The notes under the pieces are model-generated. The model did not search any database, was not told the DNA's origin, and saw nothing but the letters and a program-made list of their open reading frames with translations. DNA of 64,000 bases from an uncultured Chthonomonadaceae bacterium. Lineage in GTDB: Bacteria > Armatimonadota > Chthonomonadetes > Chthonomonadales > CAJBBX01. Location of the stretch: positions 12,178-76,177 of the forward strand of contig CAYNFH010000003.1 in the NCBI GenBank assembly GCA_964396385.1, in the 5' to 3' direction. Made by a program: the position numbers and the translations under genes. Below are positions 39,885-62,688 of this stretch, piece after piece. Numbering within the stretch: the stretch's first letter is position 1; every line of letters starts with the position of its first letter.

Positions 39885-39914
39885 CTTCTATCTCCTTGAA
39901 TGCATGCTCGACGC

Positions 39915-43765: not shown

Positions 43766-45114
43766 CGGTTCTCTCCCTTGCCGATGACGCTGAAGGTGAC
43801 CTCGGACGTGTAGAACACGCCGGCGGGGGCGCGGGCCTCCCGGAGCCGCTTCATTCCCTGGAAGCGCACTCCTTCGTCACCTACGTTGGCAGCGTCTATG
43901 ACCGCGGCCGCCTTCTCCCTCGTGGTGAAGAGAAGTGCCTTCACGTGCTCCAGCCCTTTCTCATCCGCCGTGTAGTACTCGCTGGGTGGCGGCGGGAGCC
44001 TCTTGACGTCGCCGACCTCTACCTGGGCTGTGCTCACGTCTCCCTTTGGAAACAGGCGATAGACCTTGCCGTCCACGTTGCGGTCCAGCACCACCAGGAA
44101 GCCGGTGACGCCGATTTTCACGTCCAGGCGGATGGGCTCGCCCAGCTCAAAGGCGGTGTGGTCCGGGATCAGGCTGAGGGAGAGCGCCGCGGGATCCACG
44201 TGGTCGCTGTTAAAGTCTTGCCAGAGGGTCGGGGGATCCTGCTCTGTGCTGGAGACCGTCGCGAGACGGTCCTTGGAGTCGAACAGCGACGCCTGCACAT
44301 AGGCCGGGGAGATAGTCGGGTGCTGGTGGAACCGGTCGCCGAGCGTCTCCGCGACTTTCCCCTTCACCTCCGCGTGGAGGGTTCCCCACGGGAGGCTGCT
44401 GTCCTGCTTCAGCTCTTCCACCAGATCACTGGTGAAGACGCCGTGGTACTCGCCCTTGAATCGGCCCTCCAGCGCCTGCTCGTTGCCCTGCGCCGCGGTC
44501 CAGTAGCATACGTTGCTGTCCTTCACCAGGTCGCTCTGAGTGTCCTGATGGCTCGCCGGCCGGGCCGTGATGCTCTTGGAGCCTGCCGGCGCATAGTAGC
44601 GCGGCCGGAAGTCGCGCCGGTCCTCCGTAGAGATGAATTTACGCATGGCGCCGGAGAAGCAGGAGTCCAGAACCACTGTACGGGCGCGGCCGGGGACAGC
44701 GCGCACGGTCTGGTAGAGCTCTTCCGGCGTAATCCCGTTGCCCTGTGCCGTGGAGTCGGTAGGCATCAGCTCCATGCGCGGCTCATCCCGGCCGTGGCCC
44801 GCGAAGTAGAGGAGAAAGCGCTCACTCGGGCCCACGCGCGCGCCAATAGAGGAGATGTTCGCCAGGATGGCCGCGCGCGTCGCCTGCTCGTTGAGCAGCA
44901 GCGTGACCTTGAAGCCGAGGTCCTTCAAGGCTCCGGCCATCAGGCGGGCGTCTCCCTCGCAGCCTCGCAGCGTGTTAGCACGGGCGAGTTGGTACCGCTG
45001 TACCCCGATCACCAGGGCTTGATCCTCGCTTTGCGCAGGCGCCTGCGCGGCAAGCATCGCAAGCAGCAGGAACGCCGTAACAGCGGCGGATCGCATGGAC
45101 GTTAAGCGTTTCAT
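43762..45114 (-). CDS. Secreted caspase-family (peptidase C14) protease with a DUF4384-like C-terminal domain; catalytic dyad intact
   Basis: Start MKRLTSMRSAAVTAFLLLAMLAAQAPAQ at 45114. Motifs: ALVIGVQRY, LLYFAGHGR, VLDSCFSG and GEPIRLDVKIGVTGFLVVLDRNVDGKVYRLFP. The track ORF to 45741 is an extension. Confidence 0.85.
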   Translation of the reverse strand: MKRLTSMRSAAVTAFLLLAMLAAQAPAQSEDQALVIGVQRYQLARANTLRGCEGDARLMAGALKDLGFKVTLLLNEQATRAAILANISSIGARVGPSERFLLYFAGHGRDEPRMELMPTDSTAQGNGITPEELYQTVRAVPGRARTVVLDSCFSGAMRKFISTEDRRDFRPRYYAPAGSKSITARPASHQDTQSDLVKDSNVCYWTAAQGNEQALEGRFKGEYHGVFTSDLVEELKQDSSLPWGTLHAEVKGKVAETLGDRFHQHPTISPAYVQASLFDSKDRLATVSSTEQDPPTLWQDFNSDHVDPAALSLSLIPDHTAFELGEPIRLDVKIGVTGFLVVLDRNVDGKVYRLFPKGDVSTAQVEVGDVKRLPPPPSEYYTADEKGLEHVKALLFTTREKAAAVIDAANVGDEGVRFQGMKRLREARAPAGVFYTSEVTFSVIGKGENR

Positions 45115-45192
45115 GCGCGGCTCTTCGCGTGGCGTTTGGGCTATTCCTCGCCCCTTCCAGCCCTTTCGGAGGGATCTGCGCAAATGGGCCGG

Positions 45193-45216
45193 TTTCGGCA
45201 ACGCTTTCGGCAACGG
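45193..45216. promoter_or_regulatory. Tandem direct repeat TTTCGGCAACG(C/G) x2 in the divergent caspase-operon / CIS promoter region
   Basis: ggTTTCGGCAACGCTTTCGGCAACGGtgg, about 80 nt upstream of the first CIS gene. Confidence 0.4.
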
Positions 45217-45297
45217 TGGGCCTGTAGACTGGCCGTGGTCAGGACGCAAGAGCCCCTGAACGTCCGACAACGCCCTGGAAGGCAAAACGATCCGCCC

Positions 45298-46518
45298 ATG
45301 ATCCACGACGTGGACGAGACCCTGCGCAAGCTGCTGGTGGAGGAGCTGGCTCGCATTCCCGGCGACCCCGTGCGTCACCCCGATCAGATTGGGTTCGACC
45401 CGCCGTCGGTGGCGGAGGCCATCCAGGATCGGGCGGCTCGCGTAAACCTGTACCTGCACGACGTCCGGGAGAACCGCGACCTGCGGGACGAGGGGTTCGT
45501 GTCGGTCCCCGGTCCACCGGACAGAAGCGCCGTAGGCCGCCGCCAGACGGGGGTGCGGCTGGACCTTTCCTATCTCATCACCGCGTACGCGGGCGATGAC
45601 GCCGCGGTGGAGCACCGGCTGCTGTCCGATATTCTCATCGTCCTGCTGCGCACTCTGTCGGCGCCCACCAAGTACCTCAGCGGAGAGCTGGAGGGGCTGG
45701 GCTCCAACGCCGTCCTGCTGACCGTGGCCCAGCCGGACCACATCGCTAACAGCGATCCCGCGTCCTTATGGCAGGCGCTCGGCGGAACGCTCCGGCCGGC
45801 CGTGAGCCTCGTGGTCACGACGCCGTTCGACCCGTTCGCTACCGTCTGGGCCAGGGCGGTGAAGGAGGCGATCCTGGGGGTAGGTCAGGGTCTTCCCCCC
45901 GACGGCCCCAGGCGTCCGCTGGGGATGACCGGCGTGTGGGTGAGTGCGGCCGGCGTGGCGCTGAACCAGGAGACGGAGAGACCGCTGGAGGGTGTGCGGG
46001 TAACCGTCTCCGGCCGCCGCGAGTCCGTGCACACCGATTCCCACGGGTTCTTCCACCTACTCAACCTGCCGGCCGGCCCGTATACCCTCCAGTTCGAGAA
46101 GAAAGGCTACCAGGCGCAGTCGCTGGCCGTGTACGCGCCACAGCTCGGACGACCGGACCAACTGGAGCCCACCGTCGCCGCGCTGCGTGCACTCAGCCCG
46201 GAGGAGCGCGCTGCGCAGGCTGCGGGTCAGGCGGCCGCCCGGGCCACGTCGGCCGTTATCGAGAGAGACCGTACCTACCGCGTCTCCCTCACCGGCACGC
46301 TCACCTTCGCCGATGGCCGGCCCGCCGCCAACATACCCGTCCGTGTTGGACGCCACACCACGACCACGGACCTTTCCGGAGTCTACTACTTCCTGGACCT
46401 TCCGCCGGGAGATCACACGGTCTATGCGGACGTACCCGGCCAGGGTCCACTCAAGGCGGTGCCCGGAGAGGCCACTCCCATCCTTTCCGGCCCGCCAGCC
46501 GGCCGCTCTCGTTCATAG
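45298..46518 (+). CDS. DUF4255 (Pvc16/Afp16 N-terminal-like, tail cap/terminator) fused to two carboxypeptidase-regulatory-like beta-sandwich domains
   Basis: MIHDVDETLRKLL...VNLYLHDVRENRDLR...LDLSYLITAYAG are DUF4255 hallmarks. Then VRVTVSGRRESVHTDSHGFFHLLNLPAGPYTLQFEKKGY and a second TTTDLSGVYYFLDLPPGDHTVYA. Confidence 0.8.
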   Translation: MIHDVDETLRKLLVEELARIPGDPVRHPDQIGFDPPSVAEAIQDRAARVNLYLHDVRENRDLRDEGFVSVPGPPDRSAVGRRQTGVRLDLSYLITAYAGDDAAVEHRLLSDILIVLLRTLSAPTKYLSGELEGLGSNAVLLTVAQPDHIANSDPASLWQALGGTLRPAVSLVVTTPFDPFATVWARAVKEAILGVGQGLPPDGPRRPLGMTGVWVSAAGVALNQETERPLEGVRVTVSGRRESVHTDSHGFFHLLNLPAGPYTLQFEKKGYQAQSLAVYAPQLGRPDQLEPTVAALRALSPEERAAQAAGQAAARATSAVIERDRTYRVSLTGTLTFADGRPAANIPVRVGRHTTTTDLSGVYYFLDLPPGDHTVYADVPGQGPLKAVPGEATPILSGPPAGRSRS

Positions 46519-46551
46519 CGCGGTTCCCTTTCTCGTTTGCAGGAGGACACG

Positions 46552-48405
46552 ATGCCTGAATACCTAGCACCCGGCGTATTCGTTGAAGAGATTGACAACG
46601 GCAGCAAGCCCATAGAAGGCGTGGGCACAAACACGGTCGCCTTCGTGGGCTTCGCGAAGAGCGGGGACTTCAACACCCCCACCTTTATCTCCAACTGGAC
46701 GCAGTTCTGCCAGAGCTTCGGCGAGGAGGAGAACGCGCTTGTTCGCGCCCTCTCCGACGAGCTGGGAATCACCGGCCCGGAGGTCGTAGCCGCCAAGCGC
46801 GCCTCGCGCAAAGGCTGGATAGAGTACGCGCAGACTGCGGTCCAGAGTGCTATCCGCGAGCGCCCGGCCAATGCCAAGGGTAGCAAGAGCTGGCAGGACT
46901 TCCTGCGCACCCACCAGATTCCCATGAGCGGCCTGCCATACGCGGAGGGCAGCTACCTGGCGCACACGGTCCGCGGCTACTACGACAACGGCGGAGGGCG
47001 CGCGTACATTGTGCGCATTCCACGCCGCCAGGATGTGGAGTCGCTGCTTTATAAGGTCAATGGCCAGGCCGACAGCAAGAAGCTGGCCCCGCCTCCACCA
47101 CTCACTATCGGTCCCTATACTTTCAAGGCCGCGAAGACCGCCGCAGACCCAGTTCAGATCGAGGTGGAGCACGTTGGGGACGGAGAGGAGTTCCGGATCA
47201 AGCTGTCTCAGGGCGACGCCTCGGAGTCCTATGGGTACGGCAAGGACAAGCCCTTGACTCCGGACGGGCTGGCCCAGGCGCTCACTCGCTCCAAGCTGGT
47301 GGACGTACAGACGGCGGACGCCGCCACCATGACGCGGCCGGAAGCTCGCATCTATACCATTGAGGCCGCGAGCCTCGTCCCGGTTGCTGCTTCCGGCGCA
47401 CCCGAGTCGCTCTCCGTCAGCGCGCTGGCAGCGCTCAAAGCGGAGGATTTCATTGGGGACGAGGCGCAGCGCACCGGCGTTAACGGGCTCGCGCTGCTGG
47501 ACGACGTCAACGCGGTCTGCGTGCCGGACCTCATGGCGGGCCTCTATCAGCGGCAGAGTGTAAACGGTAACGGCGGACCGGCGGTGGAGACGCTCGCACT
47601 GAACGACGCGCGCCGACAGGCGATCCTCGACGCTCAGTGCGCCGTGGTGGCCTATTGCGAGCGCTCCGCGGACCGAATGGCTATCCTGGACCCGCTGCCA
47701 GGATTGACGCCGCAGCAGATGCGCGACACCACGCTCAATACCCCCTATAACTGCGATCACGGCCAGGCGGCCATTTACTATCCCTGGATCAGGATCACGG
47801 ACCCGATGCGCCGGGGCCAGCAGATGATGTGCCCACCCTGCGGCCACGTGGCGGGCGTCTGGGTGCGGGCGGCGGTTGAGCGCGGAGTACACAAGGCACC
47901 GGCCAACGAGGCGCTGCTCGGAGCCGTGGCCCTGGAGGTGGGGATTACGAAGGGCGAGCAGGAGATCCTCAACCCGGAGGGCATCAATGCTATCCGTGCG
48001 TTCCCCGGCACCGGCATCCGCATCTGGGGCGCCCGTACGCTGGCGACCGTGGGCAACCCCTCCTGGAAGTACGTCAACGTCCGACGGTTGTTCAACTACC
48101 TGGAGAAATCCATGGAGCGCGGGCTCCAGTGGGTGGTCTTCGAGCCAAACGACTCGGACCTGTGGGGCCGGGTGCGCCGAAACATCGCCGCCTTCCTGTG
48201 GACCGAGTGGAAGGAAGGAAAGCTGTTCGGAACGACTGCGGCGGAGGCGTTCTACGTCAAGTGCGACTCGGAGACAAATCCCCAGGAGATGATCGATCTC
48301 GGCAGGCTGTACGTGGAGATCGGGGTCAACCCCGTCAAGCCGGCGGAGTTCGTGATTGTGCGCATCGGGCAGTGGTCGGCCAGCAGCAGCATCGCAGAAG
48401 CGTAG
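46552..48405 (+). CDS. Contractile tail sheath protein
   Basis: AGGAGG SD. MPEYLAPGVFVEEID is the canonical sheath N-terminus. Also GINAIRAFPGTGIRIWGARTL...NVRRLFNYLEKS...FVEF-type C-terminal motifs. Confidence 0.92.
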   Translation: MPEYLAPGVFVEEIDNGSKPIEGVGTNTVAFVGFAKSGDFNTPTFISNWTQFCQSFGEEENALVRALSDELGITGPEVVAAKRASRKGWIEYAQTAVQSAIRERPANAKGSKSWQDFLRTHQIPMSGLPYAEGSYLAHTVRGYYDNGGGRAYIVRIPRRQDVESLLYKVNGQADSKKLAPPPPLTIGPYTFKAAKTAADPVQIEVEHVGDGEEFRIKLSQGDASESYGYGKDKPLTPDGLAQALTRSKLVDVQTADAATMTRPEARIYTIEAASLVPVAASGAPESLSVSALAALKAEDFIGDEAQRTGVNGLALLDDVNAVCVPDLMAGLYQRQSVNGNGGPAVETLALNDARRQAILDAQCAVVAYCERSADRMAILDPLPGLTPQQMRDTTLNTPYNCDHGQAAIYYPWIRITDPMRRGQQMMCPPCGHVAGVWVRAAVERGVHKAPANEALLGAVALEVGITKGEQEILNPEGINAIRAFPGTGIRIWGARTLATVGNPSWKYVNVRRLFNYLEKSMERGLQWVVFEPNDSDLWGRVRRNIAAFLWTEWKEGKLFGTTAAEAFYVKCDSETNPQEMIDLGRLYVEIGVNPVKPAEFVIVRIGQWSASSSIAEA

Positions 48406-48430: not shown

Positions 48431-48865
48431 ATGGCTGAAGTGATTGGGGCATTGAGGTGGTACCTCGAAGTCGACGGCATAACGGAAGGAATCTTTCGGG
48501 AGGTGACGGGGCTCGATTCCGAGACGGAGGTGATCGAGCACCGGGTCACGGGCAAGAACGGCAACCTGATAGTCCACAAGGTGCCGGGTGCGCTCAAGTG
48601 GTCCAACGTCACCCTCCGCCGCGGAATTACGGACGACCGGAAGCTGCACGACTGGCGCAAAAAGATCGAGGACGGGCAGATCGAGGCGAACCGCAAGAAC
48701 GGGACGATCACCTGCTTCGCCCCGAACGGCGATGTAGTCGCAAAGTACTCGTTCAAGAAGGGCTGGCCGTGTAAGTGGCGGGGGCCGGGACTGGACGCCA
48801 CCAAGAACGAGTTGGCCATTGAAGAGCTGGAGCTGGCCCACGAGGGGCTGGAGCGCCAGCAGTAA
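48431..48865 (+). CDS. Tail tube protein (gp19/Afp1-like)
   Basis: FREVTGLDSETEVIEHR...KVPGALKWSNVTLRRGI...WPCKWRGPGLDA...IEELELAHEGL. Confidence 0.88.
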   Translation: MAEVIGALRWYLEVDGITEGIFREVTGLDSETEVIEHRVTGKNGNLIVHKVPGALKWSNVTLRRGITDDRKLHDWRKKIEDGQIEANRKNGTITCFAPNGDVVAKYSFKKGWPCKWRGPGLDATKNELAIEELELAHEGLERQQ

Positions 48866-48876
48866 TGAGGCCCTAG

Positions 48877-49221
48877 ATGAACAAGGCATCCGGCCTACAA
48901 ACCGAGTTCGAGTTCACCCTTCCTAAGGGATATGTGGGACCGGACGGTACGCTGCACCGGAAGGGCAGGATGCGCCTCGCCACGGCCATCGACGAGATCG
49001 CTCCGCTGCGGGATCCGCGCGTCCGCTCCAATGAGGCGTACCTGGTGATCATCCTGCTCGCCAGGGTGATCACCCAGCTAGGGACGCTCGACGGCATCGA
49101 CACCGGCGTGATCGAAGGGCTGTTTTCTGCCGACCTTGCCTACCTCCAGGACTTCTACCGGAAGATCAACGACGTGGATGGAGGTGAGGCCGCGGGGGAG
49201 GACGGCCAGACGGGGGAATAG
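48877..49221 (+). CDS. Tail-assembly-chaperone-like protein (P2 gpE-like)
   Basis: FEFTLPKGYVGPDGTLHRKGRMRLATAIDEIAPLRDPRV..., an acidic tail, and a position directly after the tube gene. Confidence 0.55.
   Translation: MNKASGLQTEFEFTLPKGYVGPDGTLHRKGRMRLATAIDEIAPLRDPRVRSNEAYLVIILLARVITQLGTLDGIDTGVIEGLFSADLAYLQDFYRKINDVDGGEAAGEDGQTGE

Positions 49222-50012: not shown

Positions 50013-50016
<4 letters not shown>
49387..50016 (+). CDS. DUF4255 (Pvc16_N) domain protein
   Basis: LNLFLYQVKP... and FELNYLITAYGGEDL are DUF4255 hallmarks. Confidence 0.8.
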
Positions 50017-52031
<2,015 letters not shown>

Positions 52032-52053
52032 GCCCGGGTTGGGAGGTGGGCGG

Positions 52054-52617
52054 ATGGCAGGCAAGATAAAGGCAGGTCTCGTAGCGCCTCAGCGCGCGAC
52101 AACTCACGAAGGAGGGCCCGCACCTGCGCCCGCCGCCCGGGGCGCGCGCACTCCGGCGATCCACACGGCCGGAAAGGCCGAGCCAGGCTTTGGCCACAAC
52201 TTCGCCAACGTACAGGTGGCGGCGGAGCCGGATGTGGACGCGCCACCAAACGTGGTGCATCGGCGGGTGATGGAGGAGATGGAGCAATCCCTGGGCGGGG
52301 GTGGCGGCGGGATGGGTAGCGCTGCCTCCGGAATGCTGGCAGGGCTGGGCGGAGGCGGGCTGGGAAGCGCCGCTTCAGGGATCATGGCAGGTTTGGGCGG
52401 GCTCGGCTTGCCGGACCCGACCTTTGGCATGGCCGGCAAAGCCCTCTCCATGGGCCAGGACGCGGCCAGCACGCTGGGTGGCGCGGCGGCGCCGTACGCG
52501 GCGCCGTTCATGAATCCTCTGGGATCGCTCGCGGGTGCGGCCAGCGGTCTAGCGGGCTCCATCGGAGGTCAGCTTCCGGCACTCCCGAGCCTCGATCCCA
52601 GCTTATTGCTTATGTAG
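52054..52617 (+). CDS. Small Gly-rich protein carrying only the FGHxF..V.V leader motif of DUF4157 (eCIS cargo-type N-terminus)
   Basis: GGGAGG SD. EPGFGHNFANVQV, then repeats of GGLGSAASG(I/M)(M/L)AGLGG. Confidence 0.6.
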   Translation: MAGKIKAGLVAPQRATTHEGGPAPAPAARGARTPAIHTAGKAEPGFGHNFANVQVAAEPDVDAPPNVVHRRVMEEMEQSLGGGGGGMGSAASGMLAGLGGGGLGSAASGIMAGLGGLGLPDPTFGMAGKALSMGQDAASTLGGAAAPYAAPFMNPLGSLAGAASGLAGSIGGQLPALPSLDPSLLLM

Positions 52618-52650: not shown

Positions 52651-54912
52651 GTGAGGATGGAAACGAGGATTAGACGTCTCACCAGTCCAGGCGCACAAGC
52701 GGGGCCAGCTCACGGTCCGGCCGTCGCGGCGCGCGCCAGACCTGTCACCCGAGCATCCCGGCACGGCAGTCCCGACACCGTTCGCGCCACGGTAAGTGTC
52801 CCTTTCGGCCATGACTTTGGCCATGTGCACGTCCAGGCGGGAGCGGAGGCGGACGTTCACCGATGGCCGTTTGACGATGACAGCAGCAACAAGAGTCCCG
52901 GCATACTCGACAGCCTGGGGTCGATGGCTTCCGGAGCGTGGGATGCAACCAAGGCGGGCGCATCGGCTGTGGGTGGCGCGGCCTCAGGTGCTTACGATAA
53001 GTACCAGCAGATGACGGACACCAAGCCGGTAGCAGCCGGAGACGCCAAGATCGACTGGACCGGCAAGACCCCGATCTCGTGGACACAGGCCTTGGGCGCC
53101 GGCGTTGATTGGATGGAGAAGAAAGCGGGCGAGGGGCTGGATGCAGGGGCCAAGTCGGCGGAAGGCATTCCGGTTCTGGAGCAGCTTGCCGGCGCAGGGG
53201 CATTTGTGGGCAAGGGAATGACCAATCTTACGGGCGGGGTCATTCGAGGAGCCGGGGATATTGTCGGCGGAATCGAGAATGTCTTTGCCCATCCGATTGA
53301 CTCGGCGGCAGGGATCGAAGGCATTCTGGAGCACAACAGCACCATTCCCTTCATGGGCTCCACCCTCAAGGCCATCCACGGAGCGTACGACATCGCAACG
53401 GACAAGAAGAACGCGGAGTACGGCAACTCCTGGGGCGATCTGGCCAATCACGTCTTCAACCCCATGCAGCAGATGAAGGACGACCAGGCATTCGATTCCA
53501 ACCTGGCGCGGGGCATTGTGGCTCCGGGAACGAAGGACTGGGGCGATGCGTGGAACCACATCAAGCAGAATCCGGCGGATGCGTTTGGCCGCGCGGTGAC
53601 CAACATAGCGCCTATGGTGATGGGTTTGGGTGAAGCGGCAGGAGGGGAAGAAGCCGGGCAGGCTTCGAAAGGTCTGGCTGAACCGACTCCGAAGCCCCCG
53701 TCGGGCCCGCTTCCGGAACGGCTGCCTTTGCCTGAGCCAGCGCCGACGCCGGTAGAGATACCCAAGCCAATCGAGCCGCTGCCATCTCCTGGGGAGCCTC
53801 CTCCCTCATCCGCGCCTAGGTCGTCACCGCCGTCGACTCCGGAGCCGCCGGGTTCCGGTCCGCCGACCAAGCGCTATCCTGTTGGCCCGTCCGGAGAGCC
53901 GGAGCCTCCGGTGCCCGGTTGGAACGATCCGCCCTCATCGCGCCCGCCGTCGTCCGGGGAACCGCCTTCTTCCGGCAGCCCGCGCGCATCCGGGGAGCCG
54001 CCCACTTCCAGTAAGCCATCGACGTCCGGTGAGTCACCGGCCAGCGGAGGACCGGAGGGCGGGTCCAAGGGGACGAAGGGACAGCTCGATCAACGGCTTC
54101 AGAACATGCTGGACAACGACATCGATCCCCAGCAGCATCTGGGATACAGTTCGGAGGAGTGGAACCAGCTCCAGAAGGACGCCGCTTCCAATCCGGACAA
54201 GGCGCTTAAGGATCTGGACGCGCGGATGGACCGTCATGGGGTGCGTGCCGAGACATCCGCCGGCCCGGCCAGCGAACCAGAACCTCAACTGAAGGTTCCC
54301 GAAGTGCCGGACAACCCTCTGGACCTTCCGGAGTATCAGGCGGCGATAGAGGAAGCGCAGCAGAAGAAGATGTTTGAGCCGGCCAACCCAAAGAAGGCTC
54401 ACTACCAGGCAGGCGGCTCACAGACAAGCGGTTGGGCCGGCGCCGAGGACCAGGTCGACCGCGTGCTATCAGAGGCGCGCCAGGCCGGCTTCGATCCAGA
54501 GCCTCACCCGTTCGATCCGAAAGGCGAGCCTGGCAAGTACGGCGCTTCTCACGCCGAGGCGAAGGGCGTTGTCCAGGAGCCCGGCGTACCGGGCCAGGTA
54601 GATAAGCCAATGTGCGAAGAGAACTGTCGGCCGCTGGTGAAGGCCCTCGTCCAAGAAAATGGTGTACCTCAGGTTATCGCGGATCCGGATGCGACCCGCG
54701 TCTTCATGCCTGACGGCAGCGTGCATGAAGCCCCAGGCCCATCCGGCGAGCCGCCTAAGGCCACCTTTCCAACAGAACCGGGCGGGCAACCGCCGGCCGA
54801 CTTCTCGGATCTCACTGACAGCCCTCCGGAAGGGATGAAGGGCGTAAACGGGGATGATTGGGCAAAGGCTGTTGCGCAGTTGCGTGAGCAGCTCAAGAAT
54901 TCGGGCAGGTGA
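52651..54912 (+). CDS. DUF4157-leader cargo/effector with a conserved central module and a deaminase-like C-terminal domain
   Basis: VPFGHDFGHVHVQ leader. Central 220 aa are identical to the next gene. The C-terminus YGASHAEAKGVVQEPGVPGQVDKPMCEENCRPLVKALVQENG shows an HAE ... PxCxxC pattern. Alternative ATG at 52657. Confidence 0.75.
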   Translation: MRMETRIRRLTSPGAQAGPAHGPAVAARARPVTRASRHGSPDTVRATVSVPFGHDFGHVHVQAGAEADVHRWPFDDDSSNKSPGILDSLGSMASGAWDATKAGASAVGGAASGAYDKYQQMTDTKPVAAGDAKIDWTGKTPISWTQALGAGVDWMEKKAGEGLDAGAKSAEGIPVLEQLAGAGAFVGKGMTNLTGGVIRGAGDIVGGIENVFAHPIDSAAGIEGILEHNSTIPFMGSTLKAIHGAYDIATDKKNAEYGNSWGDLANHVFNPMQQMKDDQAFDSNLARGIVAPGTKDWGDAWNHIKQNPADAFGRAVTNIAPMVMGLGEAAGGEEAGQASKGLAEPTPKPPSGPLPERLPLPEPAPTPVEIPKPIEPLPSPGEPPPSSAPRSSPPSTPEPPGSGPPTKRYPVGPSGEPEPPVPGWNDPPSSRPPSSGEPPSSGSPRASGEPPTSSKPSTSGESPASGGPEGGSKGTKGQLDQRLQNMLDNDIDPQQHLGYSSEEWNQLQKDAASNPDKALKDLDARMDRHGVRAETSAGPASEPEPQLKVPEVPDNPLDLPEYQAAIEEAQQKKMFEPANPKKAHYQAGGSQTSGWAGAEDQVDRVLSEARQAGFDPEPHPFDPKGEPGKYGASHAEAKGVVQEPGVPGQVDKPMCEENCRPLVKALVQENGVPQVIADPDATRVFMPDGSVHEAPGPSGEPPKATFPTEPGGQPPADFSDLTDSPPEGMKGVNGDDWAKAVAQLREQLKNSGR
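52921..53546 (+). repeat. 626-bp segment 100% identical to 55544..56169 (copy 1)
   Basis: Compared by eye base-for-base. All six-frame track ORFs in the two segments are identical at offset 2623. Confidence 0.9.
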
Positions 54913-54976
54913 ACCCACGATGCGTCACAGATCGGGCCCCTGGAGGCTCGGGCAGTTGACTGAGAGAGGTTAGCCA

Positions 54977-57919
54977 ATGGGCGGGCGGGCGATGCGATCA
55001 TCCAAGCATGCCGAGGCACCGGGTCATGCGGAAGCGGTTCACACGGGAGTGCGTGACACCGTTCAGCAGGGCACGCGCGCCGGAGGCAGTCCGCTGCCGC
55101 ACGCCGCCCGGGTGAAGATGGAAGAGCGGTTTGGTCACGACTTCGGCCAGGTTCGCGTTCACGACGGACCGGATGCGAACCTCTCGGCGGATGGCCTAGC
55201 TGCCCATGCCTATACCGTTGGATCCGACATAGTGTTCAACCAGGGGAAATTCAATCCAGACAACGCGGACGGCGAGGAGATGCTGACGCACGAGCTGACG
55301 CACGTTATTCAGCAGGGCGGTCAATCCGCGGCCAGCGCGGGCGGCGAGCTGGAAATCAGCGACCCTTCCGATCCGGCGGAGCAAGAGGCGCATGAGCTGG
55401 CAAAGGAGATGCGGGGCGACGAGGATTCCGCAAGTCCTTCGGCCGCCCCGGCGGCTTCGGTCCATCGCTGGCCCTGGGATGACGACGATAAGAAGAGTGG
55501 AGGCGGCGGAGGCAGCAGCCCCGGCATACTGGACAGCCTGGGCTCGATGGCTTCCGGAGCGTGGGATGCAACCAAGGCGGGCGCATCGGCTGTGGGTGGC
55601 GCGGCCTCAGGTGCTTACGATAAGTACCAGCAGATGACGGACACCAAGCCGGTAGCAGCCGGAGACGCCAAGATCGACTGGACCGGCAAGACCCCGATCT
55701 CGTGGACACAGGCCTTGGGCGCCGGCGTTGATTGGATGGAGAAGAAAGCGGGCGAGGGGCTGGATGCAGGGGCCAAGTCGGCGGAAGGCATTCCGGTTCT
55801 GGAGCAGCTTGCCGGCGCAGGGGCATTTGTGGGCAAGGGAATGACCAATCTTACGGGCGGGGTCATTCGAGGAGCCGGGGATATTGTCGGCGGAATCGAG
55901 AATGTCTTTGCCCATCCGATTGACTCGGCGGCAGGGATCGAAGGCATTCTGGAGCACAACAGCACCATTCCCTTCATGGGCTCCACCCTCAAGGCCATCC
56001 ACGGAGCGTACGACATCGCAACGGACAAGAAGAACGCGGAGTACGGCAACTCCTGGGGCGATCTGGCCAATCACGTCTTCAACCCCATGCAGCAGATGAA
56101 GGACGACCAGGCATTCGATTCCAACCTGGCGCGGGGCATTGTGGCTCCGGGAACGAAGGACTGGGGCGACGCGTGGAACCACATCAAGGAAAACCCGATG
56201 GATGCGCTCGGGCGGGCAGGGACGAACGTGCTGCCCATGGTCATGGGGATGGGCGAAGCGGGGGCCGGAGAGGCCGCAGGGGAAGGCAGCGGAGCAGCCA
56301 GGGCCGCGGGTGAGGGAGGCGCGGGCGCTGGAGCCAAGACGTTGCCCGGACTCGGACCGCCCGGTCCGCCCGTGAAGACGCTTCCCGGATTGGGACCTCC
56401 TGGCCCAGAACTGCCAGTCCCGGTGGAGGCTCCTTCTGTACCGAAAGCGCCTTCGGGCGGCGTCCCCGAGCCCGCCGTGGCGCCGGCCGAAGCGCCAGTA
56501 GCGCCCTCCGAGCCCGCCCCAGCGGCGCCACGGCCCAAGGCCAATGTAGAGATCAACGCGAACGTGGCCAAACCCGGTCAGGGCAACGTACAGATTATAA
56601 AGAACATCCTCGAGAAGCCGCCCGGCGAGGCGCCTGGTGTTCCGCCGACGGAGCGCGGTCCGCTGACTTCGCCTGCCGCGGAGAGTGTCCCCCCTCCAAC
56701 CGAGGCCGTGCCTACGGTCCGCGAGCCTCACGTAGTCAACCCGAGCGGCGAGCCCGTGGTGGTAAACCCCAACGCGCCCTTCTTTGCGGACCCGGGCGAC
56801 CCCACGGTTCATCCGCTGGAATCACCCGCGGCCAAGAGCCTGCCCGCGCCTCCCACGGTGCCGGATCCCGCTACAATTCCGGGGCCCCTTGACGTCCCCC
56901 CAGCCACCGTGCCGGATCCACCCACTCTTCCCGGCCTTGGGCCAAAGACGCTTCCGGGACTCGGGGTTCCAGGCCCCGAGCTGCCGTCGGCCATCAGCCA
57001 GCTCGATCCCGCTCTGTTCGAGCCGGCGCCCGTCACACCGAAGGTACCCTCGCGGCCGCCGGGAGTTCCTGCGCCCGAGCCGTTCAATCCGGATATCCCG
57101 GTGATTGAGCCGGAGCCCCCGACAGGTCCACCTCGGCCGGCGCCGGCCCCCGAGCCGCCAGCGCCAAACATCCACGAGGCGCCGAGCCATGTGCCAAGCG
57201 GAGAGCCCAGCAGCAACGCCTTCTCGCATGGCAGGCTCGAACCGTTCAGGCACGTGCCGGAGCCCAGCGTTCCGCCGGGATTTGAAAACGTGCCGCGGCC
57301 GTTCCCTGCCCCGCGAGAGCCGGTCCCCCTGCCGGACCAGACTCCTTCCCTGGGTTCCGTTCCGGATCCGGCGACCATTCCACCGGAACGGCCCCCAAAT
57401 ACGGTGGTGCAAGAGCCCCAGTCAACGCTTCCATCCAGCTCCGGGCCCTCAAGCAGCTCGAGTTTCCCGGAAGTGCCTTCGTTCCCGAGCTCCGAGTTCC
57501 CGGCACCCACCATCCCGGACGGGCCGCCGACTATCAGGGAGCCTGACTTTAGCCCGAAGCCTCCGGGGGCCCCCATCGCCCCGGAGCCGATCCCGAAGCT
57601 GCCAGGCGGCCCCAAAGAGGGACCTCCGATCCCGCGCGAGGAACCGCTGTCGCGCCCGGCAGACACGCCGCGTCAACCGATCGATATACCGGGCTCCATA
57701 CCGCCGCCGCCCGACACAATACCCGACGGACCAATCACGCAGGATGCTCCGTCCTCATCGGGCAGCGAGACGCCGACGCTGCGCGGGCTGGGAGGCGTGC
57801 CGGCCATACCGCGCGGGTTTGATCCGGGCGCCTTGATCCAGCTCATGCTCGACACTCCGGGCGCTGGAAGCGTTGTCGAACTGATGCAGCAGCTCGGCAT
57901 GCCCACGCGACGCGCCTGA
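54977..57919 (+). CDS. Full DUF4157 (zincin HExxH) cargo/effector with the shared central module and a ~580-aa Pro-rich C-terminal region
   Basis: LPHAARVKMEERFGHDFGQVRVHDG...AHAYTVGSDIVFNQGKF...EEMLTHELTHVIQQ. KTLPGLGPPGP repeats. GAGAGG SD. Confidence 0.85.
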   Translation: MGGRAMRSSKHAEAPGHAEAVHTGVRDTVQQGTRAGGSPLPHAARVKMEERFGHDFGQVRVHDGPDANLSADGLAAHAYTVGSDIVFNQGKFNPDNADGEEMLTHELTHVIQQGGQSAASAGGELEISDPSDPAEQEAHELAKEMRGDEDSASPSAAPAASVHRWPWDDDDKKSGGGGGSSPGILDSLGSMASGAWDATKAGASAVGGAASGAYDKYQQMTDTKPVAAGDAKIDWTGKTPISWTQALGAGVDWMEKKAGEGLDAGAKSAEGIPVLEQLAGAGAFVGKGMTNLTGGVIRGAGDIVGGIENVFAHPIDSAAGIEGILEHNSTIPFMGSTLKAIHGAYDIATDKKNAEYGNSWGDLANHVFNPMQQMKDDQAFDSNLARGIVAPGTKDWGDAWNHIKENPMDALGRAGTNVLPMVMGMGEAGAGEAAGEGSGAARAAGEGGAGAGAKTLPGLGPPGPPVKTLPGLGPPGPELPVPVEAPSVPKAPSGGVPEPAVAPAEAPVAPSEPAPAAPRPKANVEINANVAKPGQGNVQIIKNILEKPPGEAPGVPPTERGPLTSPAAESVPPPTEAVPTVREPHVVNPSGEPVVVNPNAPFFADPGDPTVHPLESPAAKSLPAPPTVPDPATIPGPLDVPPATVPDPPTLPGLGPKTLPGLGVPGPELPSAISQLDPALFEPAPVTPKVPSRPPGVPAPEPFNPDIPVIEPEPPTGPPRPAPAPEPPAPNIHEAPSHVPSGEPSSNAFSHGRLEPFRHVPEPSVPPGFENVPRPFPAPREPVPLPDQTPSLGSVPDPATIPPERPPNTVVQEPQSTLPSSSGPSSSSSFPEVPSFPSSEFPAPTIPDGPPTIREPDFSPKPPGAPIAPEPIPKLPGGPKEGPPIPREEPLSRPADTPRQPIDIPGSIPPPPDTIPDGPITQDAPSSSGSETPTLRGLGGVPAIPRGFDPGALIQLMLDTPGAGSVVELMQQLGMPTRRA
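55544..56169 (+). repeat. 626-bp segment 100% identical to 52921..53546 (copy 2)
   Basis: See copy 1. Confidence 0.9.
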
Positions 57920-57977: not shown

Positions 57978-58268
57978 TTGGCAGCCGGTGAAGCGGAAGA
58001 GGAGGAGGCTGGCGTAAGCCAGCAGCGCGAGCAGCGGGCTCCGACTCCCGCCCTTGTCTTCGCGATTCCAGCGAAGACCGCGGCCTCCGAGGGGCCGGCC
58101 GCCCCATCGCAAACTGCAACCGAGGATCGAGGGGCAGCCGCCAAGCAGGGCTCCGGCGCGGCACCGGGGCAGGCGGATCCGCGCGCGGTGGCGGACCGTG
58201 TGTACGAGCTGATGCGGGAAGAAATGGAGCATTCGGTGCTCCGCGGGATGCGGCGGCGGGGATGGTGA
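57978..58268 (+). CDS. Small acidic/Ala-rich protein whose C-terminal motif is shared with the 1043-aa protein
   Basis: TTG start 10 nt after GGAG. C-terminus AVADRVYELMREEMEHSVLRGMRRRGW compares with LLATEVWSILKRRLEIEGERRGRR. Confidence 0.4.
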   Translation: MAAGEAEEEEAGVSQQREQRAPTPALVFAIPAKTAASEGPAAPSQTATEDRGAAAKQGSGAAPGQADPRAVADRVYELMREEMEHSVLRGMRRRGW

Positions 58269-58343: not shown

Positions 58344-58823
58344 ATGTTAGTTGCCACACGTCCTTCGTCCAACGGCAGCCAGGCGCCGGCGGAGCAGCCG
58401 AGATCAAAGGACCCGCATCTGGGGCTGCGGTTCTGGGTGCAGCTCGGCCAGGTGGAGGTGGCGGGCTTTCAGGAGTGCTCCGGCCTGGAGATTGAAACCG
58501 AGGTCTTCGAGTACCGCGAGGGCGGCCTGAACACCTATGTCCACAAGCTGCCTGTGCGCGCCAAGTACAAGAACATCACTCTCAAACGCGGCCTGGACGA
58601 GAACCAGGACCTCTATAGCTGGTACGTCAAGGCCATGAACAACGACATGGGCCGGCAGAACATCTCCATCATCGTCTATGACTCGCTCGGCAAGCAGGTG
58701 GAGAAGTGGGACCTCCAGCGGGCATGGCCGTGCAAATGGACGGGACCCGAGCTAAAGGCTGAACACGGGGCGGTCGCGGTGGAGACGGTCGAGATAGCCC
58801 ACGAGGGACTGCTGCCCCGGTAA
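58344..58823 (+). CDS. Second tail tube-family protein (Afp5/Pvc5-like)
   Basis: FQECSGLEIETEVFEYREGG...KLPVRAKYKNITLKRGL...WPCKWTGPELKA...VETVEIAHEGL, parallel to the first tube protein. Confidence 0.85.
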   Translation: MLVATRPSSNGSQAPAEQPRSKDPHLGLRFWVQLGQVEVAGFQECSGLEIETEVFEYREGGLNTYVHKLPVRAKYKNITLKRGLDENQDLYSWYVKAMNNDMGRQNISIIVYDSLGKQVEKWDLQRAWPCKWTGPELKAEHGAVAVETVEIAHEGLLPR

Positions 58824-58869: not shown

Positions 58870-61800
58870 ATGCGTAAGGAAGCCCAGCCGGCGGCAATGC
58901 TGAAGGTTCCGCTGTCCGTCCGCCGGACGGCGGCGTTCGGCCGCATGGTAGCCGGCCGCGTGGGGAGCACGTGGAGTCCCGTGGCGGCACGCGTCAGGAT
59001 GCTCTCCCGGACCTCACGCGCGCGCCTGGCCGGCTGGCGGTTGGACCGGCTGGCGTCCTGGACCAACCCATTCCTCCATGGGTTCATAACGCGCGGCATG
59101 AGCCGTTTTGGCTTGCTGGAGCGGGCGCGCCCCGCCCTCGACCTCTATCTGTCCAGACCGGCCATCCCGATGGTCTCCTGGCTCGGAGTGGCGGCGCCGC
59201 AGCCGGAGCGTTTCGAGCCGGAGCCGTTCGAGCTTTCTCGGAGCTTCGGCTCGCCAGGAGCATATACAGCGGCAGGGGCCGCGGACAGTACAAGAGGCGG
59301 CCCGGTGGGGCTGCCGATCCGGGCGGCGCTCCCGGCCCGGATGAGACCTGCACCTGCTCCGGAAGGACAAGCGGTCTTGCCGAGGGATGTAGGAGTGCGG
59401 CCCTTCGCGCCACATAGCGTCTCGAGCCCCCAGGGCGCCCTGCGCCATGGGCAGGGTGCGCATCTCCGGACGAGCCTCGCCAGCCAGATCGCGCGCTCCC
59501 ACCGCCTGATTACGCGCGCGCCGGTGCGCAGCTCACATGTCGCGGCAGCCCTGAAGTCTGGCACGAATCCGTCGCGACCTGTGGTGCGGGCGCCGTCCTC
59601 ACGGGTCCACCGCTCCGCAGGTATGGCGTCGGTTCGGGGCGGAATCGCGCCTCCGCGGCTGGCCGCACCCAGCATCCTTCGGGGCCGCGGACTTCCGCGT
59701 CCCGTGACGCCCGCCGGGCAGGTCGGGTCCGTTGCGGCGCGAACTCGCCCGAGACAGGACCATGCGGCCGGCAAGCGGATTCTGCCACGCGGCCAAACCG
59801 GGCATCCTTCTACGCTCGCATTCCTGCCCCTCAGCGCGAGTCCTACGGCGGCGCCGGACGCGACTCCGGACGGGAGCCCTTTCCGGCACCGCCCGCAGCC
59901 GGACTCAGCAGATTCCCCGTCGCTTCGCGGCACTGAGCATCTGGCGGAGATGGGCGAGATACGGGGCCAGAGTCTGGAGGGCGCGCCAGGCGCTGCCCTG
60001 CCATTCCCAGAAGGATTGAGCAGGATCCTGGCCTTTGTGAACGGGCAGGTCCCCCGCGCGGCCGGATCGAGCGGGCCTGTGATGGAGAACCGCAGCGGCG
60101 GGGTTAAAGAGTCTGGGCGCGGATCGGAAGGGCTACTACGCCGCCGAGGAGAGCTGCCTGTCCTCGGGATGACAGATCGCGGCTTCGCGCGGTCTGGAGG
60201 TACGGGAGAGTTGCGGGAAGCAAAGCAGGTCCCTCCCAGTGTCCTGCCCTCTGCGCACCGCGCATTCACCCGCCTGGAGATGGCAAGTCGCTACGATAGA
60301 TACTCTGGAGGCACAGCGTTCAAATCGGCAGGCGGCCAGGTCCCTCGATTCCCCGGGATAACAAGTTGGTACGTTCCGGTCCTCTCGCATACGGCGTCGC
60401 ACTTGCCCCATGGGGTTCCTCGGAACAGCCCGCACGGCGCGGCGATCCTGGATCCGCGCGAGGCCGGCGGCATCGCACCGAGGTTGTTGAAGAACGTAAC
60501 GCAGGGTGGAGGCGGCAAGCCGGGCCAATCAGCTCTGGTGTCGCGCGCAGTGGCCGCACCGCGGGTTCCGGGACTCCATATTGTGGCCCGTGCCCCGCGG
60601 CTGACTCCCGGGCCGGCCGCCAGCCGAGTGACCCGATCAATCGGCGCGGCAAGGGCTTCCGGGCTGGATGCGCCGCCGCCGCCGAGGACGCCACAGAAGC
60701 AGACGGTGGCGCACCGGCAGGGAGCAATCGGACCGATGGCGGCCGTGGTCGCCCGGCGATACCCGGCGCTCGCGGATAGAGCTCCGGAGCATGCGGTGGT
60801 ACGGCCGGTGATACGGCCATTCCTGGCGGAGATATGGGCAAAGAGCGACGGAGTGACGCGAGCGATTCGGGGGCCGGGTCCGCGCAGACCCGATCTTCGA
60901 AGTGGAGATGGGGCCACCTTCACGCCAGCTCGTGCGTGGGAGTCGAGGCCGGACCCTGCAGTTGACGGCTTCTTACCACTCTCAATCCCGAGTCACGGCC
61001 TTTGGACCCAGGCAGACGTGCCAGACCCGGTTGACGCGGGCTGGCAAAGCTCGGCGCATGGCCCTGCGAAACCAGTCACCGCGTGGACAATAGGTCCGCA
61101 GCCGGAGGCAGTTCGGCAGCGACCGACCGGACCAGCGCGGTCCGCTCCCGTACGGCCGGTCGGCACGCCGCGGGTAATGCGCTCCGCGCGCGGCGTCGCG
61201 ACCAGACCGACCCAATCTCCTGCGCCCGCTGCATCGAGATCGGCGCGTTCGCGAAGCGCCATTCCCGACCTGAGGAGCCGCCTTTCGCCAGCACTGGCGC
61301 GGCTCGTGACCAGCCGTGCACAGCGCGGTGGACATGCGGACCCGGCGGTAGCCCCGGTTTTCTCCTCCCCTCTGATGGCGGCAGGTGGCGGGAGAACAGT
61401 CGGGCTGCCGGCTCAACTTTCCGCACACATACTCGGGCCGCCCCGGCGCCTGCCGAAAATCGGCGAATCGCCTAAGCCAACCGGCGCTTCGCTCCCGATA
61501 GCCCGTGGCCCGACGCGACCGCAGCCGTTCCCAGACCTGGTCACCGGAGAGTCCGCACCGGCAACCAGGCCGATCGGGCGGCGGGACCGGGCTAATGTTA
61601 TGTTGGTGGACTCCTTGAAGCCGGCACACAGCCTACCGGCTATGGCAGAGCGCCTGCCCATGGCACCGGTCGGAGCAGCGCGTCCGACCGGTGCCAAATC
61701 GGCCGGAACGACCGGTGAGACAGTCGCGCGGACGCCCGGAATATCGGCCCGCGCTGCGGCGCCCGCATTATGGATGCCGACCCTGCCCGCCCTTTCCCGC

Positions 61801-62001
61801 GCTCGGCAGAAGGCAATTCCCGTAGTGCAGCGGGAGGCGTCCGAGTCGCCGGCGCCTACCGGGAGCAAGGCGCATTCGGCCGAGGCGGCCAAGGGCGATA
61901 CGGGCGACGCGGCCAACCAGGTGCAACTTCTGGCTACGGAGGTGTGGTCTATCCTGAAGCGGCGTCTGGAGATAGAGGGCGAGCGCCGGGGTCGGCGGTG
62001 A
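58870..62001 (+). CDS. 1043-aa Arg/Pro/Ala/Ser-rich low-complexity protein; positional candidate for tail-length (tape-measure-like, Afp14-type) protein
   Basis: Uninterrupted 3.1-kb ORF between the tube-2 and LysM genes. Only the C-terminal 25 aa look ordered. Confidence 0.55.
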   Translation: MRKEAQPAAMLKVPLSVRRTAAFGRMVAGRVGSTWSPVAARVRMLSRTSRARLAGWRLDRLASWTNPFLHGFITRGMSRFGLLERARPALDLYLSRPAIPMVSWLGVAAPQPERFEPEPFELSRSFGSPGAYTAAGAADSTRGGPVGLPIRAALPARMRPAPAPEGQAVLPRDVGVRPFAPHSVSSPQGALRHGQGAHLRTSLASQIARSHRLITRAPVRSSHVAAALKSGTNPSRPVVRAPSSRVHRSAGMASVRGGIAPPRLAAPSILRGRGLPRPVTPAGQVGSVAARTRPRQDHAAGKRILPRGQTGHPSTLAFLPLSASPTAAPDATPDGSPFRHRPQPDSADSPSLRGTEHLAEMGEIRGQSLEGAPGAALPFPEGLSRILAFVNGQVPRAAGSSGPVMENRSGGVKESGRGSEGLLRRRGELPVLGMTDRGFARSGGTGELREAKQVPPSVLPSAHRAFTRLEMASRYDRYSGGTAFKSAGGQVPRFPGITSWYVPVLSHTASHLPHGVPRNSPHGAAILDPREAGGIAPRLLKNVTQGGGGKPGQSALVSRAVAAPRVPGLHIVARAPRLTPGPAASRVTRSIGAARASGLDAPPPPRTPQKQTVAHRQGAIGPMAAVVARRYPALADRAPEHAVVRPVIRPFLAEIWAKSDGVTRAIRGPGPRRPDLRSGDGATFTPARAWESRPDPAVDGFLPLSIPSHGLWTQADVPDPVDAGWQSSAHGPAKPVTAWTIGPQPEAVRQRPTGPARSAPVRPVGTPRVMRSARGVATRPTQSPAPAASRSARSRSAIPDLRSRLSPALARLVTSRAQRGGHADPAVAPVFSSPLMAAGGGRTVGLPAQLSAHILGPPRRLPKIGESPKPTGASLPIARGPTRPQPFPDLVTGESAPATRPIGRRDRANVMLVDSLKPAHSLPAMAERLPMAPVGAARPTGAKSAGTTGETVARTPGISARAAAPALWMPTLPALSRARQKAIPVVQREASESPAPTGSKAHSAEAAKGDTGDAANQVQLLATEVWSILKRRLEIEGERRGRR

Positions 62002-62040
62002 TTGCGGCTCTGCGGCGCTTCCTGGCACGGAGAACGAGAC

Positions 62041-62688
62041 ATGGGACTTACGAAAGCTACCATCACAAACCTGGAAACGAACGAGCAGATTTCGTGCAAG
62101 TTCAACCCCACCGAGTACACGATTAACAAGGAGAACTCCTGGAAGAGCAAGCCGGTGGTGGGAAAGAACGTGCCCAAGCTGGAGTTCACGGGCGGTGGCG
62201 CGCAGATACTGACCATGGAGCTCTTCTTCGACGCCCACGAGGATAAGGGCGATGTCCGCGTCGATGTGAAGAAGCTGATGGCGCTCACCCTCATCCACCC
62301 GAAGCCGAAGAACGACAAGACCAAGCGCTCGCGGCCACCCCTATGCATCTTCCAGTGGGGACCCAACTGGGAGTTCAAGGCGGCCGTCACCAAGCTTTCG
62401 GTCAAGTACACGCTCTTCCATCAAGACGGCACGCCTGTCAGGGCGACGGCCAACATTACCTTCCAGGAGGCGGAGGACGAGAAGGAGCAGAAGAAGACCA
62501 ACCCCACCTCCTACTCGGAGCCCGGCCGCAAGCGTAGGGAGGTCCGGCCGCACGATACCCTGGCGCTGATCGCCTTTGAGGAGTTCGGCGACCCCACCTT
62601 GTGGCGGCAGATCGCCGATGAGAACCGGCTGGACGACCCCCTCTCGCTGCATGCCGGCCAGATCATCTCTATCCCGCCGCGCGCGTAA
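62041..62688 (+). CDS. Tube-initiator-like protein with a C-terminal LysM domain (Afp7/Pvc7-like)
   Basis: FNPTEYTINKENSWK...LEFTGGGAQILTMELFFD is tube-fold-like. LysM region is HDTLALIAFEEFGDPTLWRQIADENRLDDPLSLHAGQIISIP. Confidence 0.8.
   Translation: MGLTKATITNLETNEQISCKFNPTEYTINKENSWKSKPVVGKNVPKLEFTGGGAQILTMELFFDAHEDKGDVRVDVKKLMALTLIHPKPKNDKTKRSRPPLCIFQWGPNWEFKAAVTKLSVKYTLFHQDGTPVRATANITFQEAEDEKEQKKTNPTSYSEPGRKRREVRPHDTLALIAFEEFGDPTLWRQIADENRLDDPLSLHAGQIISIPPRA

Follow-up and report, generated by a model that had tools for sequence, protein, structure and literature searches.

A predicted SsdA-like cytosine deaminase on a cargo protein of an extracellular contractile injection system, with no Imm5 immunity gene detected in the surrounding 64 kb

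SsdA from Pseudomonas syringae, a member of the BaDTF2 family, is a single-stranded DNA (ssDNA) deaminase that is toxic to Escherichia coli (PMC7901873; PMC12494967) and shows only residual activity on RNA (PMC7901873). It is described as a toxin of a type VI secretion system (T6SS) and is neutralised by SsdAI, an immunity protein of the Imm5 family. Deaminases are also predicted on toxins of extracellular contractile injection systems (eCIS), for which DUF4157, found in fusion with numerous toxin domains, is a marker (Geller et al. 2021, PMC8213781). Here we analyse 64,000 nucleotides of DNA from an uncultured Chthonomonadaceae bacterium (contig CAYNFH010000003.1, positions 12,178 to 76,177), called the window in the following, in which an eCIS operon contains a gene (cargo gene 1) for a protein with a predicted SsdA-like deaminase domain, and in which no immunity gene was detected.

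Both E. coli and yeast are killed by EAT11 from Amycolatopsis nigrescens, in which an N-terminal DUF4157 is combined with a predicted deaminase at the C-terminal end (PMC8213781). For Geller et al. it was an "intriguing mystery" that most antibacterial eCIS toxins have no immunity genes beside them, and they suggested that such toxins are expressed just before lysis or that DUF4157 has a protective role (PMC8213781). Adjacency of a DUF4157 gene is accepted as a marker of eCIS toxins (PMC11297309). Loading has been described for AlgoCIS, where a disordered N-terminal sequence and an AAA+ ATPase are required, probably with unfolding of the cargo, and DUF4157 is dispensable (bioRxiv 10.64898/2026.05.27.728243). 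The two cargos of this Algoriphagus eCIS (AlgoCIS/PROCIS), Cgo1 and Cgo2, share their N-termini and consist of a disordered N-terminus, DUF4157 and a variable C-terminal effector; their effector domains differ from that of cargo 1 and no deaminase is reported there. DddA from Burkholderia cenocepacia (BaDTF1, SCP1.201-like), a bacterial toxin with the zinc motifs HxE and PCxxC, is also a cytosine deaminase of the superfamily to which SsdA belongs. DddA acts on double-stranded DNA and is structurally nearer to AID/APOBEC than to SsdA (PMC7901873).

We consider it likely that cargo 1 is an ATPase-loaded eCIS cargo that damages ssDNA with an SsdA/BaDTF2 deaminase, and that the producer has no dedicated antidote. 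The type of system is not new, since the DUF4157-deaminase architecture and the missing immunity gene have already been published for this class, and cargo 1 is a divergent addition to it. It resembles EAT11 in its association with an eCIS, its DUF4157-type N-terminus, its C-terminal predicted deaminase and the immunity puzzle, a likeness that is taken from the published description; in contrast to the EAT11 class, cargo 1 keeps only the flanks of DUF4157. The parts of the gene and its downstream neighbour are as follows (aa, amino acids).

52651..54912, plus strand: cargo gene 1, predicted eCIS deaminase effector, 753 aa, GTG start, intact frame, stop codon at 54910-54912
52651..52854, plus strand: N-terminal region, aa 1-68, basic and disordered-looking by composition, presumed loading sequence
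52855..53628, plus strand: middle domain common to cargo 2, aa 69-326 (BLASTP, 93% identity over 264 aa)
53638..54075, plus strand: Pro/Ser/Gly-rich low-complexity linker, aa ~330-475, read from the translation
54076..54375, plus strand: helical pre-toxin module, aa 476-575, terminating in NPLDLPEYQAAIEEAQ, conserved in relatives
54376..54735, plus strand: predicted BaDTF2/SsdA-like cytosine deaminase domain, aa 576-695 (Pfam PF24120, PDB match, AlphaFold2/Foldseek)
54427..54435, plus strand: SGW motif, S593-G594-W595, a BaDTF2 hallmark adjoining the active site
54550..54558, plus strand: H634-A635-E636, zinc ligand and catalytic glutamate (the counterpart of SsdA E348), aligned to the HAE of SsdA
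54607..54627, plus strand: P653-M-C655-E-E-N-C659, two cysteine zinc ligands with unusual CxxxC spacing
54736..54909, plus strand: C-terminal tail, aa 696-753, disordered and Pro-rich at first, with an amphipathic helix at aa 734-751
54913..54976, no strand: spacer of 64 bp with GAGAGAGG as ribosome-binding site for cargo gene 2
54977..57919, plus strand: cargo gene 2, 980 aa (eCIS_core PF13699, E=1.7e-29; HELTH; shared middle domain)

Profile, PDB and structure-model matches identify aa ~576-695 as a predicted zinc-dependent cytosine deaminase domain of the SsdA/BaDTF2 family. The domain is matched by Pfam SsdA_C (PF24120) with 37.2 bits (gathering cut-off 27; E=4.6e-9). A phmmer search of the PDB sequences returned SsdA of P. 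syringae first (7jtu_A, E=5.8e-13; 9c63_A, E=6.1e-12), and the 7jtu_A match spans aa 576-692 with the HAE and PMC..C motifs aligned. Two AlphaFold2 models were computed, one for aa 566-705 from a 19-sequence alignment (mean predicted local distance difference test score, pLDDT, 83.5; predicted template modelling score 0.77) and one for aa 476-753 (pLDDT 83.6); in the latter the deaminase core reaches pLDDT values of 91-95. The top Foldseek matches are again SsdA, with E values of 4e-9 to 5e-8 and template modelling (TM) scores of about 0.7 (9c63_A with the model of aa 566-705: E=4e-9, TM 0.70), at about 27% identity in the structural alignment. Next come the DYW deaminases, which are plant RNA-editing domains. 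The initial annotation had recognised the deaminase-fold toxin domain correctly and had likened it to SCP1.201/DddA-type toxins. This likeness did not hold: none of the SCP1.201-type Pfam families scored even at E<=1, SsdA_C being the sole Pfam match there, and DddA is not among the fold-search matches listed. Together with the SGW motif, these matches therefore place the domain in the DYW-related BaDTF2/SsdA family and not in that of DddA. One of the homologues, P0002 (391 aa), contains two tandem SsdA-like domains in one chain (two SsdA_C matches, E=6.8e-29), an arrangement that was not seen in the other matches.

An exhaustive HMMER search over 1.84 billion representatives yielded 247 homologues of the deaminase domain at E<=1e-3; a word-index search for homologues of the C-terminal 183 aa gave no matches. 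Conservation was counted in an alignment of the best 150 of these 247 homologues. H634 is kept in 147/150 and E636 in 146/150 sequences, and both zinc cysteines, C655 and C659, are invariant (150/150), so that the residues proposed earlier as zinc signature are indeed conserved. The glutamate equivalent to E636, E348, is essential in SsdA (PMC12494967). The SGW motif lies in an insertion before the HAE helix and separates BaDTF2 toxins from the plant DYW editing domains (de Moraes et al., PMC7901873); among 141 aligned homologues its positions are occupied by S in 137, G in 135 and W/Y/F in 125. Further conserved residues, D622, G628, D678-P679, F685, P687 and G689, are all present in cargo 1. 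F621 aligns with Y334 of SsdA, a DNA-binding and stacking aromatic residue that is essential for activity (PMC12494967). The likeness to SsdA thus extends over SGW, HAE, PMC..C, an aromatic residue at the Y334 position and the placement at the C-terminus of a large protein that is delivered.

The details of the zinc motif given in the initial annotation had to be corrected. The first of the two strings quoted there, GKYGASHAEAKGVV, begins at aa 628 (nucleotide 54532) and the second, KPMCEENCRPLVKALVQENGVPQVIADP, spans aa 652-679 and ends at nucleotide 54687, its final VIADP ending at aa 679; they are separated by 10 aa (QEPGVPGQVD) instead of 16. The motif reads P-M-C-E-E-N-C, that is PxCxxxC, and not PxCxxC. 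SsdA has the CxxC spacing. The inserted column between the cysteines is empty in 147/150 aligned sequences, and a regular-expression count among 147 homologues found 140 with CxxC and about 6 with CxxxC (~4%, query included). CxxxC is thus shared by about five further homologues and is a recurrent natural variant. Besides the spacing, cargo 1 differs from SsdA by the additional helical pre-toxin module of ~100 aa and the C-terminal tail of ~58 aa.

The proximity to the DYW domains, the nearest structural neighbours after SsdA, raises the alternative that the substrate is not DNA. An enzyme acting on RNA like the DYW relatives, or on free nucleotides, might harm particular targets only and the producer would need no antidote; the altered residues near the zinc site of this divergent member would fit such a change. 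However, the DYW-specific elements are absent from cargo 1: it has no C-terminal DYW, no CxC second zinc site (the domain has two cysteines only) and SGW at the place of the PG box. In addition, F621 occupies the place of the DNA-stacking Y334, and SsdA itself has only residual activity on RNA (PMC7901873). We therefore regard a non-DNA substrate as highly improbable.

The second element of our reading is delivery by an eCIS. Cargo gene 1 lies within an eCIS operon, directly beside the AAA+ ATPase gene and on the same strand, and its genomic setting identifies it as a putative eCIS cargo. Sheath, tube, Pvc16_N and AAA+ ATPase genes are found upstream, and a DUF4157 cargo paralogue, a tube gene and a LysM-hub gene downstream, in agreement with the CIS cargo assignment in the initial annotation. 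Apart from the two cargo genes the operon comprises the following.

45136-46518, plus strand: Pvc16_N and CarboxypepD_reg (Pfam)
46537-48405, plus strand: sheath
48431-48865, plus strand: tube
48877-49221, plus strand: conserved open reading frame (ORF) of 114 aa
49387-50016, plus strand: second Pvc16_N gene
50013..52031, plus strand: AAA+ ATPase, Pvc15/Alg15-like, with WHD and AAA domains, presumed cargo unfoldase/loader (Pfam AAA E=7e-25, WHD E=2.5e-16)
52039..52617, plus strand: Gly/Ala-rich ORF of 192 aa with GFGHNFANVQV, a motif like the start of DUF4157
57978-58268, plus strand: ORF of 96 aa between cargo gene 2 and the second tube gene, for which an independent Logan assembly (L012) has a gene call
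58344-58823, plus strand: second, gp19-like tube
58870-62001, plus strand: Arg/Pro/Ala-rich low-complexity ORF of 1043 aa (GC content at second codon positions, GC2, 0.64; no Pfam match)
62002-62688, plus strand: CIS_tube and LysM (hub)

The ATPase shares 35% identity with the ATPases of two related loci (L006 and L008) and 76% over 174 aa with the partial ATPase of a third (L009). Exact copies of the tube protein were found on short Logan contigs only; the protein is contained in runs SRR12266077 and SRR12266072. The 192-aa ORF has no match in Pfam, NCBIfam or PADLOC and no homologue at the other deaminase loci; it might be a third cargo-like protein of minimal size, or an accessory protein, and does not resemble an immunity protein. 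For the 96-aa ORF, likewise, there is no family match and no homologue at the other deaminase loci. A C-terminal motif apparently common to the 96-aa and 1043-aa ORFs was rejected since it is not statistically significant. The position of the 1043-aa ORF suggests a candidate tape-measure-like protein. The operon contains two Pvc16_N (tail-terminator-like) genes, and the CarboxypepD_reg/prealbumin-like fusion of the first recurs at L006.

The family to which an antidote would be expected to belong can be deduced from a locus in Solirubrobacteraceae (L003). There, the deaminase gene is followed by a gene for a 200-aa protein with a Pfam Imm5 match (E=1e-30) that is homologous to SsdAI, the crystallised SsdA immunity protein (7jtu_B, E=1.7e-6); therefore, Imm5 is the cognate antidote family. 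We built a profile from seven Imm5 proteins and ran it on the 908 six-frame ORFs of at least 40 aa in the window. It recovers the immunity genes at L003, L008 and L009 with E values of 1e-74 to 1e-89, and in the window it found nothing better than E=0.46 (best values 0.46-0.76). The remaining genes of the window are ordinary chromosomal and eCIS-adjacent genes (caspase-like, NlpC/P60-LysM, STAND/BTAD-TPR), and none is immunity-like. NCBIfam and PADLOC gave no matches for the cargo or the small ORFs. At ten loci the ORFs lying up to 4 kb from the deaminase gene were compared all against all, and no shared uncharacterised neighbour emerged that could represent a new immunity family.

Directly downstream of cargo gene 1, between its stop codon and the ATG of cargo gene 2 at 54977, lies the 64-bp spacer, which leaves no room for an immunity gene; the distance had been given correctly before, as had the absence of a visible immunity gene. 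We also considered the antisense ORF at 54469..54918 (149 aa) as a hidden immunity gene and rejected it: it has no Pfam or PADLOC match, and it was discounted because such ORFs are ubiquitous in the window and the sense frame is fixed by homology. In this window with 65% GC, hardly any gene is free of an overlying antisense ORF of 150-750 aa; the one over the sheath gene has 751 aa. The description of the frame at 54469..54918 as the only overlapping ORF and as resembling a GC artefact can thus be kept.

To place this absence, we took a census of ten independent loci with a DUF4157-linked SsdA-like gene and scored Imm5 in their visible flanks. Only two, L008 and L009, have Imm5 beside the toxin gene, at L008 directly upstream of the AAA ATPase gene. 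It is absent from the visible flanks of the other eight (the window, L001, L004, L005, L006, L010, L013 and L015), and at L005, L006 and L015 the toxin gene leads directly into a structural or another cargo gene, as in the window. With Imm5 at only 2/10 of these eCIS/DUF4157-linked relatives, its absence is therefore the rule for the class. The expectation in the initial annotation that an immunity gene normally follows immediately downstream thus holds for the T6SS-type SsdA and, among these relatives, for two of ten only. An adjacent Imm5 gene is an accessory trait of the toxin system and not of the domain family. The DUF4157-linked deaminase genes at L005, L006, L008 and L010 lie inside eCIS operons. 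An N-terminal DUF4157 is present on 26 of the best 150 homologue cluster representatives, so the class is populous; the DUF4157-to-deaminase architecture is also found in P0003, P0005, P0010 and the L001 protein. Loss of Imm5 in a single clade was considered, as the "LDLPEY" clade looked Imm5-free in a neighbour-joining tree, and was rejected since L013 and L015, which belong to other clades, also have no Imm5. At L001 (Acidobacteria metagenome-assembled genome, QHYZ01000065.1), the gene for a 1724-aa DUF4157-SsdA-like protein is followed by one for a 354-aa pentapeptide-repeat protein, which is not Imm5 (8484-9548) and might conceivably be a different kind of antidote, for example a DNA mimic.

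The closest relative of cargo 1 is P0003 (MEO7963960.1, annotated as DUF4157 domain-containing protein, from a Gemmatimonadaceae metagenome-assembled genome) with 51% identity in the deaminase domain. Its parts have the same order: DUF4157, the middle domain shared by cargo 1 and cargo 2, linker, helical module, deaminase and a long tail; it, too, has no Imm5 nearby. It differs in its intact DUF4157 with HELAH, the canonical CxxC and a tail that is not detectably homologous, and there are no eCIS genes within its 8.8-kb contig.

By analogy with AlgoCIS, the disordered N-terminal segment of cargo 1 would be recognised by the AAA+ ATPase, and the protein would be unfolded and threaded into the tube lumen. 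Contraction of the sheath would expel it into the target cell, where the deaminase might refold with zinc and convert C to U in ssDNA at replication forks and transcription bubbles. Such damage would lead to C:G-to-T:A mutations, to breaks induced by repair and to an arrest of growth. The survival of the producer could be explained within this scheme: expression could be tied to particle production that ends in lysis, and ATPase-driven unfolding and loading could keep the pool of free folded toxin small. Kin cells would be spared if the tail fibres recognise other organisms.

Several observations weigh against this reading. The eCIS cargo deaminases at L008 and L009 keep Imm5, the latter beside the ATPase most similar to that of the window, and immunity is therefore not generally dispensable in these systems. 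The Imm5 search covered 64 kb of the 77.9-kb contig. The tail-fibre genes, and hence the information about the target, fall outside the window. The public gene call of cargo 1 (P0001) has 662 aa and starts at M92, a start that would delete the presumed loading sequence. Compared with cargo 2 (aa 70-161), cargo 1 is without ~92 aa that include the DUF4157 HExxH. Finally, it carries residues off the family consensus (A667V, the A being present in 146/150 homologues; F663V; K580P; Q638K), which together with the CxxxC spacing mark a divergent member whose activity or substrate could differ.

The first two of these points bear on the possibility that a cognate immunity protein does exist, either as an orphan Imm5 elsewhere in the genome or as a member of an unrecognised family, for example the 192-aa or 96-aa ORF. 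This would be compatible with a delivered deaminase as proposed here. At L003, L008 and L009 an Imm5 gene comes immediately after the deaminase gene, and Imm5 is homologous to SsdAI; thus this family uses immunity proteins, also inside eCIS operons; moreover, the 96-aa ORF was independently called as a gene in L012. Set against this are the blank Imm5 search in the window, the eight of ten loci without Imm5 and the nature of the 192-aa and 96-aa ORFs, which besides having neither homologues at the other deaminase loci nor family matches look mostly low-complexity by composition. Altogether, we hold an overlooked antidote to be possible, though not probable.

As to the start codon, the N-termini of the two cargo proteins share 33% identity (E=1e-4), and the start of cargo 1 is uncertain. 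Around the VHRWP(F/W)DDD stretch, the differences between the two genes are mostly at synonymous third positions. This supports a start upstream of aa 69 rather than at M92.

The comparison of the two cargo genes shows that they are modular, with common N-terminal and middle parts and a variable C-terminal part; that of cargo 2 is long and Pro-rich without a recognised toxin domain. About 690 nucleotides of nearly identical DNA (52894-53560 versus 55517-56180) are flanked by diverged sequence, and the repeat at 52894-53193 versus 55517-55816 has 99-100% identity; the cassettes have therefore probably undergone recent recombination or gene conversion. These data suggest that such exchange may swap C-terminal toxin modules behind the common N-terminal and middle part. 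Upstream of the repeat lies the DUF4157 gap, seen when 52804-52880 of cargo gene 1 is compared with 55100-55480 of cargo gene 2. Pfam eCIS_core was not detected in cargo 1, and only the DUF4157 flanks are retained: FGHDFGHVHV (FGHDFGxVxV, common to cargo 2; aa 52-61, nucleotides 52804-52833), a remnant of the domain start, and VHRWP.

These findings could also mean that the deaminase is inactive or decaying, in a relic of inter-cargo recombination, which would explain why no immunity gene was retained. The loss of ~92 aa of DUF4157, the recent exchange tract joining the cargo genes, the insertion between the zinc cysteines and the substitutions at A667, F663 and K580 would all fit. On the other hand, the frame of 753 codons is intact, the four catalytic and zinc residues and SGW are retained, CxxxC is found in about five other homologues and the core is modelled at pLDDT 91-95. 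Moreover, P0003 with its canonical CxxC is likewise without a neighbouring Imm5. We thus regard decay as improbable and retain the reading of cargo 1 as a functional, ATPase-loaded deaminase effector.

Between the middle domain and the deaminase, GC2 climbs to 0.63-0.76 over the linker. The pre-toxin module that follows is modelled by AlphaFold with pLDDT values of 93-97 at aa 476-537 and a further helix at aa 560-575; the Pfam scan gave no family for aa 476-575. Homologous modules are present in P0003 (E=4.5e-33), P0005 (3e-18), P0008, P0006 and P0010. At the other end of the domain, ~60 residues follow the deaminase core in cargo 1, compared with a median of 14 in 150 homologues, and the protein ends with ...LKNSGR. 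The tail has no detectable homologue, P0003 included; its pLDDT is below 50 at aa 702-715 and reaches 76-84 in the helix at aa 734-751.

Either part might act in self-protection. It is conceivable, but rather unlikely, that eCIS SsdA-like deaminases are mostly antidote-free because the cargo itself, or its loading route, has inbuilt self-protection. In that case the pre-toxin module, which is common to cargo 1, P0003, P0005, P0006, P0008 and P0010, or the lineage-specific helix at aa 734-751 could cage the deaminase and hold it inactive until unfolding by the ATPase, injection and refolding. The idea of an autoinhibitory tail conserved with P0003 found no support, as the apparent similarity of the two terminal helices is not statistically significant. 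If caging were true, a genotoxic enzyme could be handled without immunity, and cargo 1 would be a naturally caged ssDNA deaminase whose zinc site has the unusual CxxxC spacing.

Members of the SsdA family are context-independent ssDNA cytosine deaminases that are used for footprinting and base editing (PMC12494967), and the divergent CxxxC member described here enlarges the sequence space of this family. Cargo 1 is, in addition, a further well-documented case of eCIS producers that appear to tolerate antibacterial-grade toxins without antidote genes (PMC8213781). The related eCIS at L009, which keeps Imm5, and that of the window, without it, form a testable pair.

Divergent from the eCIS operon, a block on the minus strand (35896-45741) encodes a 1004-aa STAND NTPase with BTAD and tetratricopeptide repeat (TPR) domains, which is a SARP-like regulator, two caspase-like Peptidase_C14 proteins with DUF4384 and a protein with NlpC/P60, LysM and SH3 domains. 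These genes could provide the regulator and the lysis or release functions for the particles. Elsewhere in the window, a PIN-domain gene (3292-3717, plus strand) and a gene with PRiA4_ORF3-like and LexA-type helix-turn-helix domains (11964-12566, minus strand) sit amid ordinary chromosomal genes for cytochrome bd oxidase, NAD synthase and Kelch/RCC1 repeat proteins.

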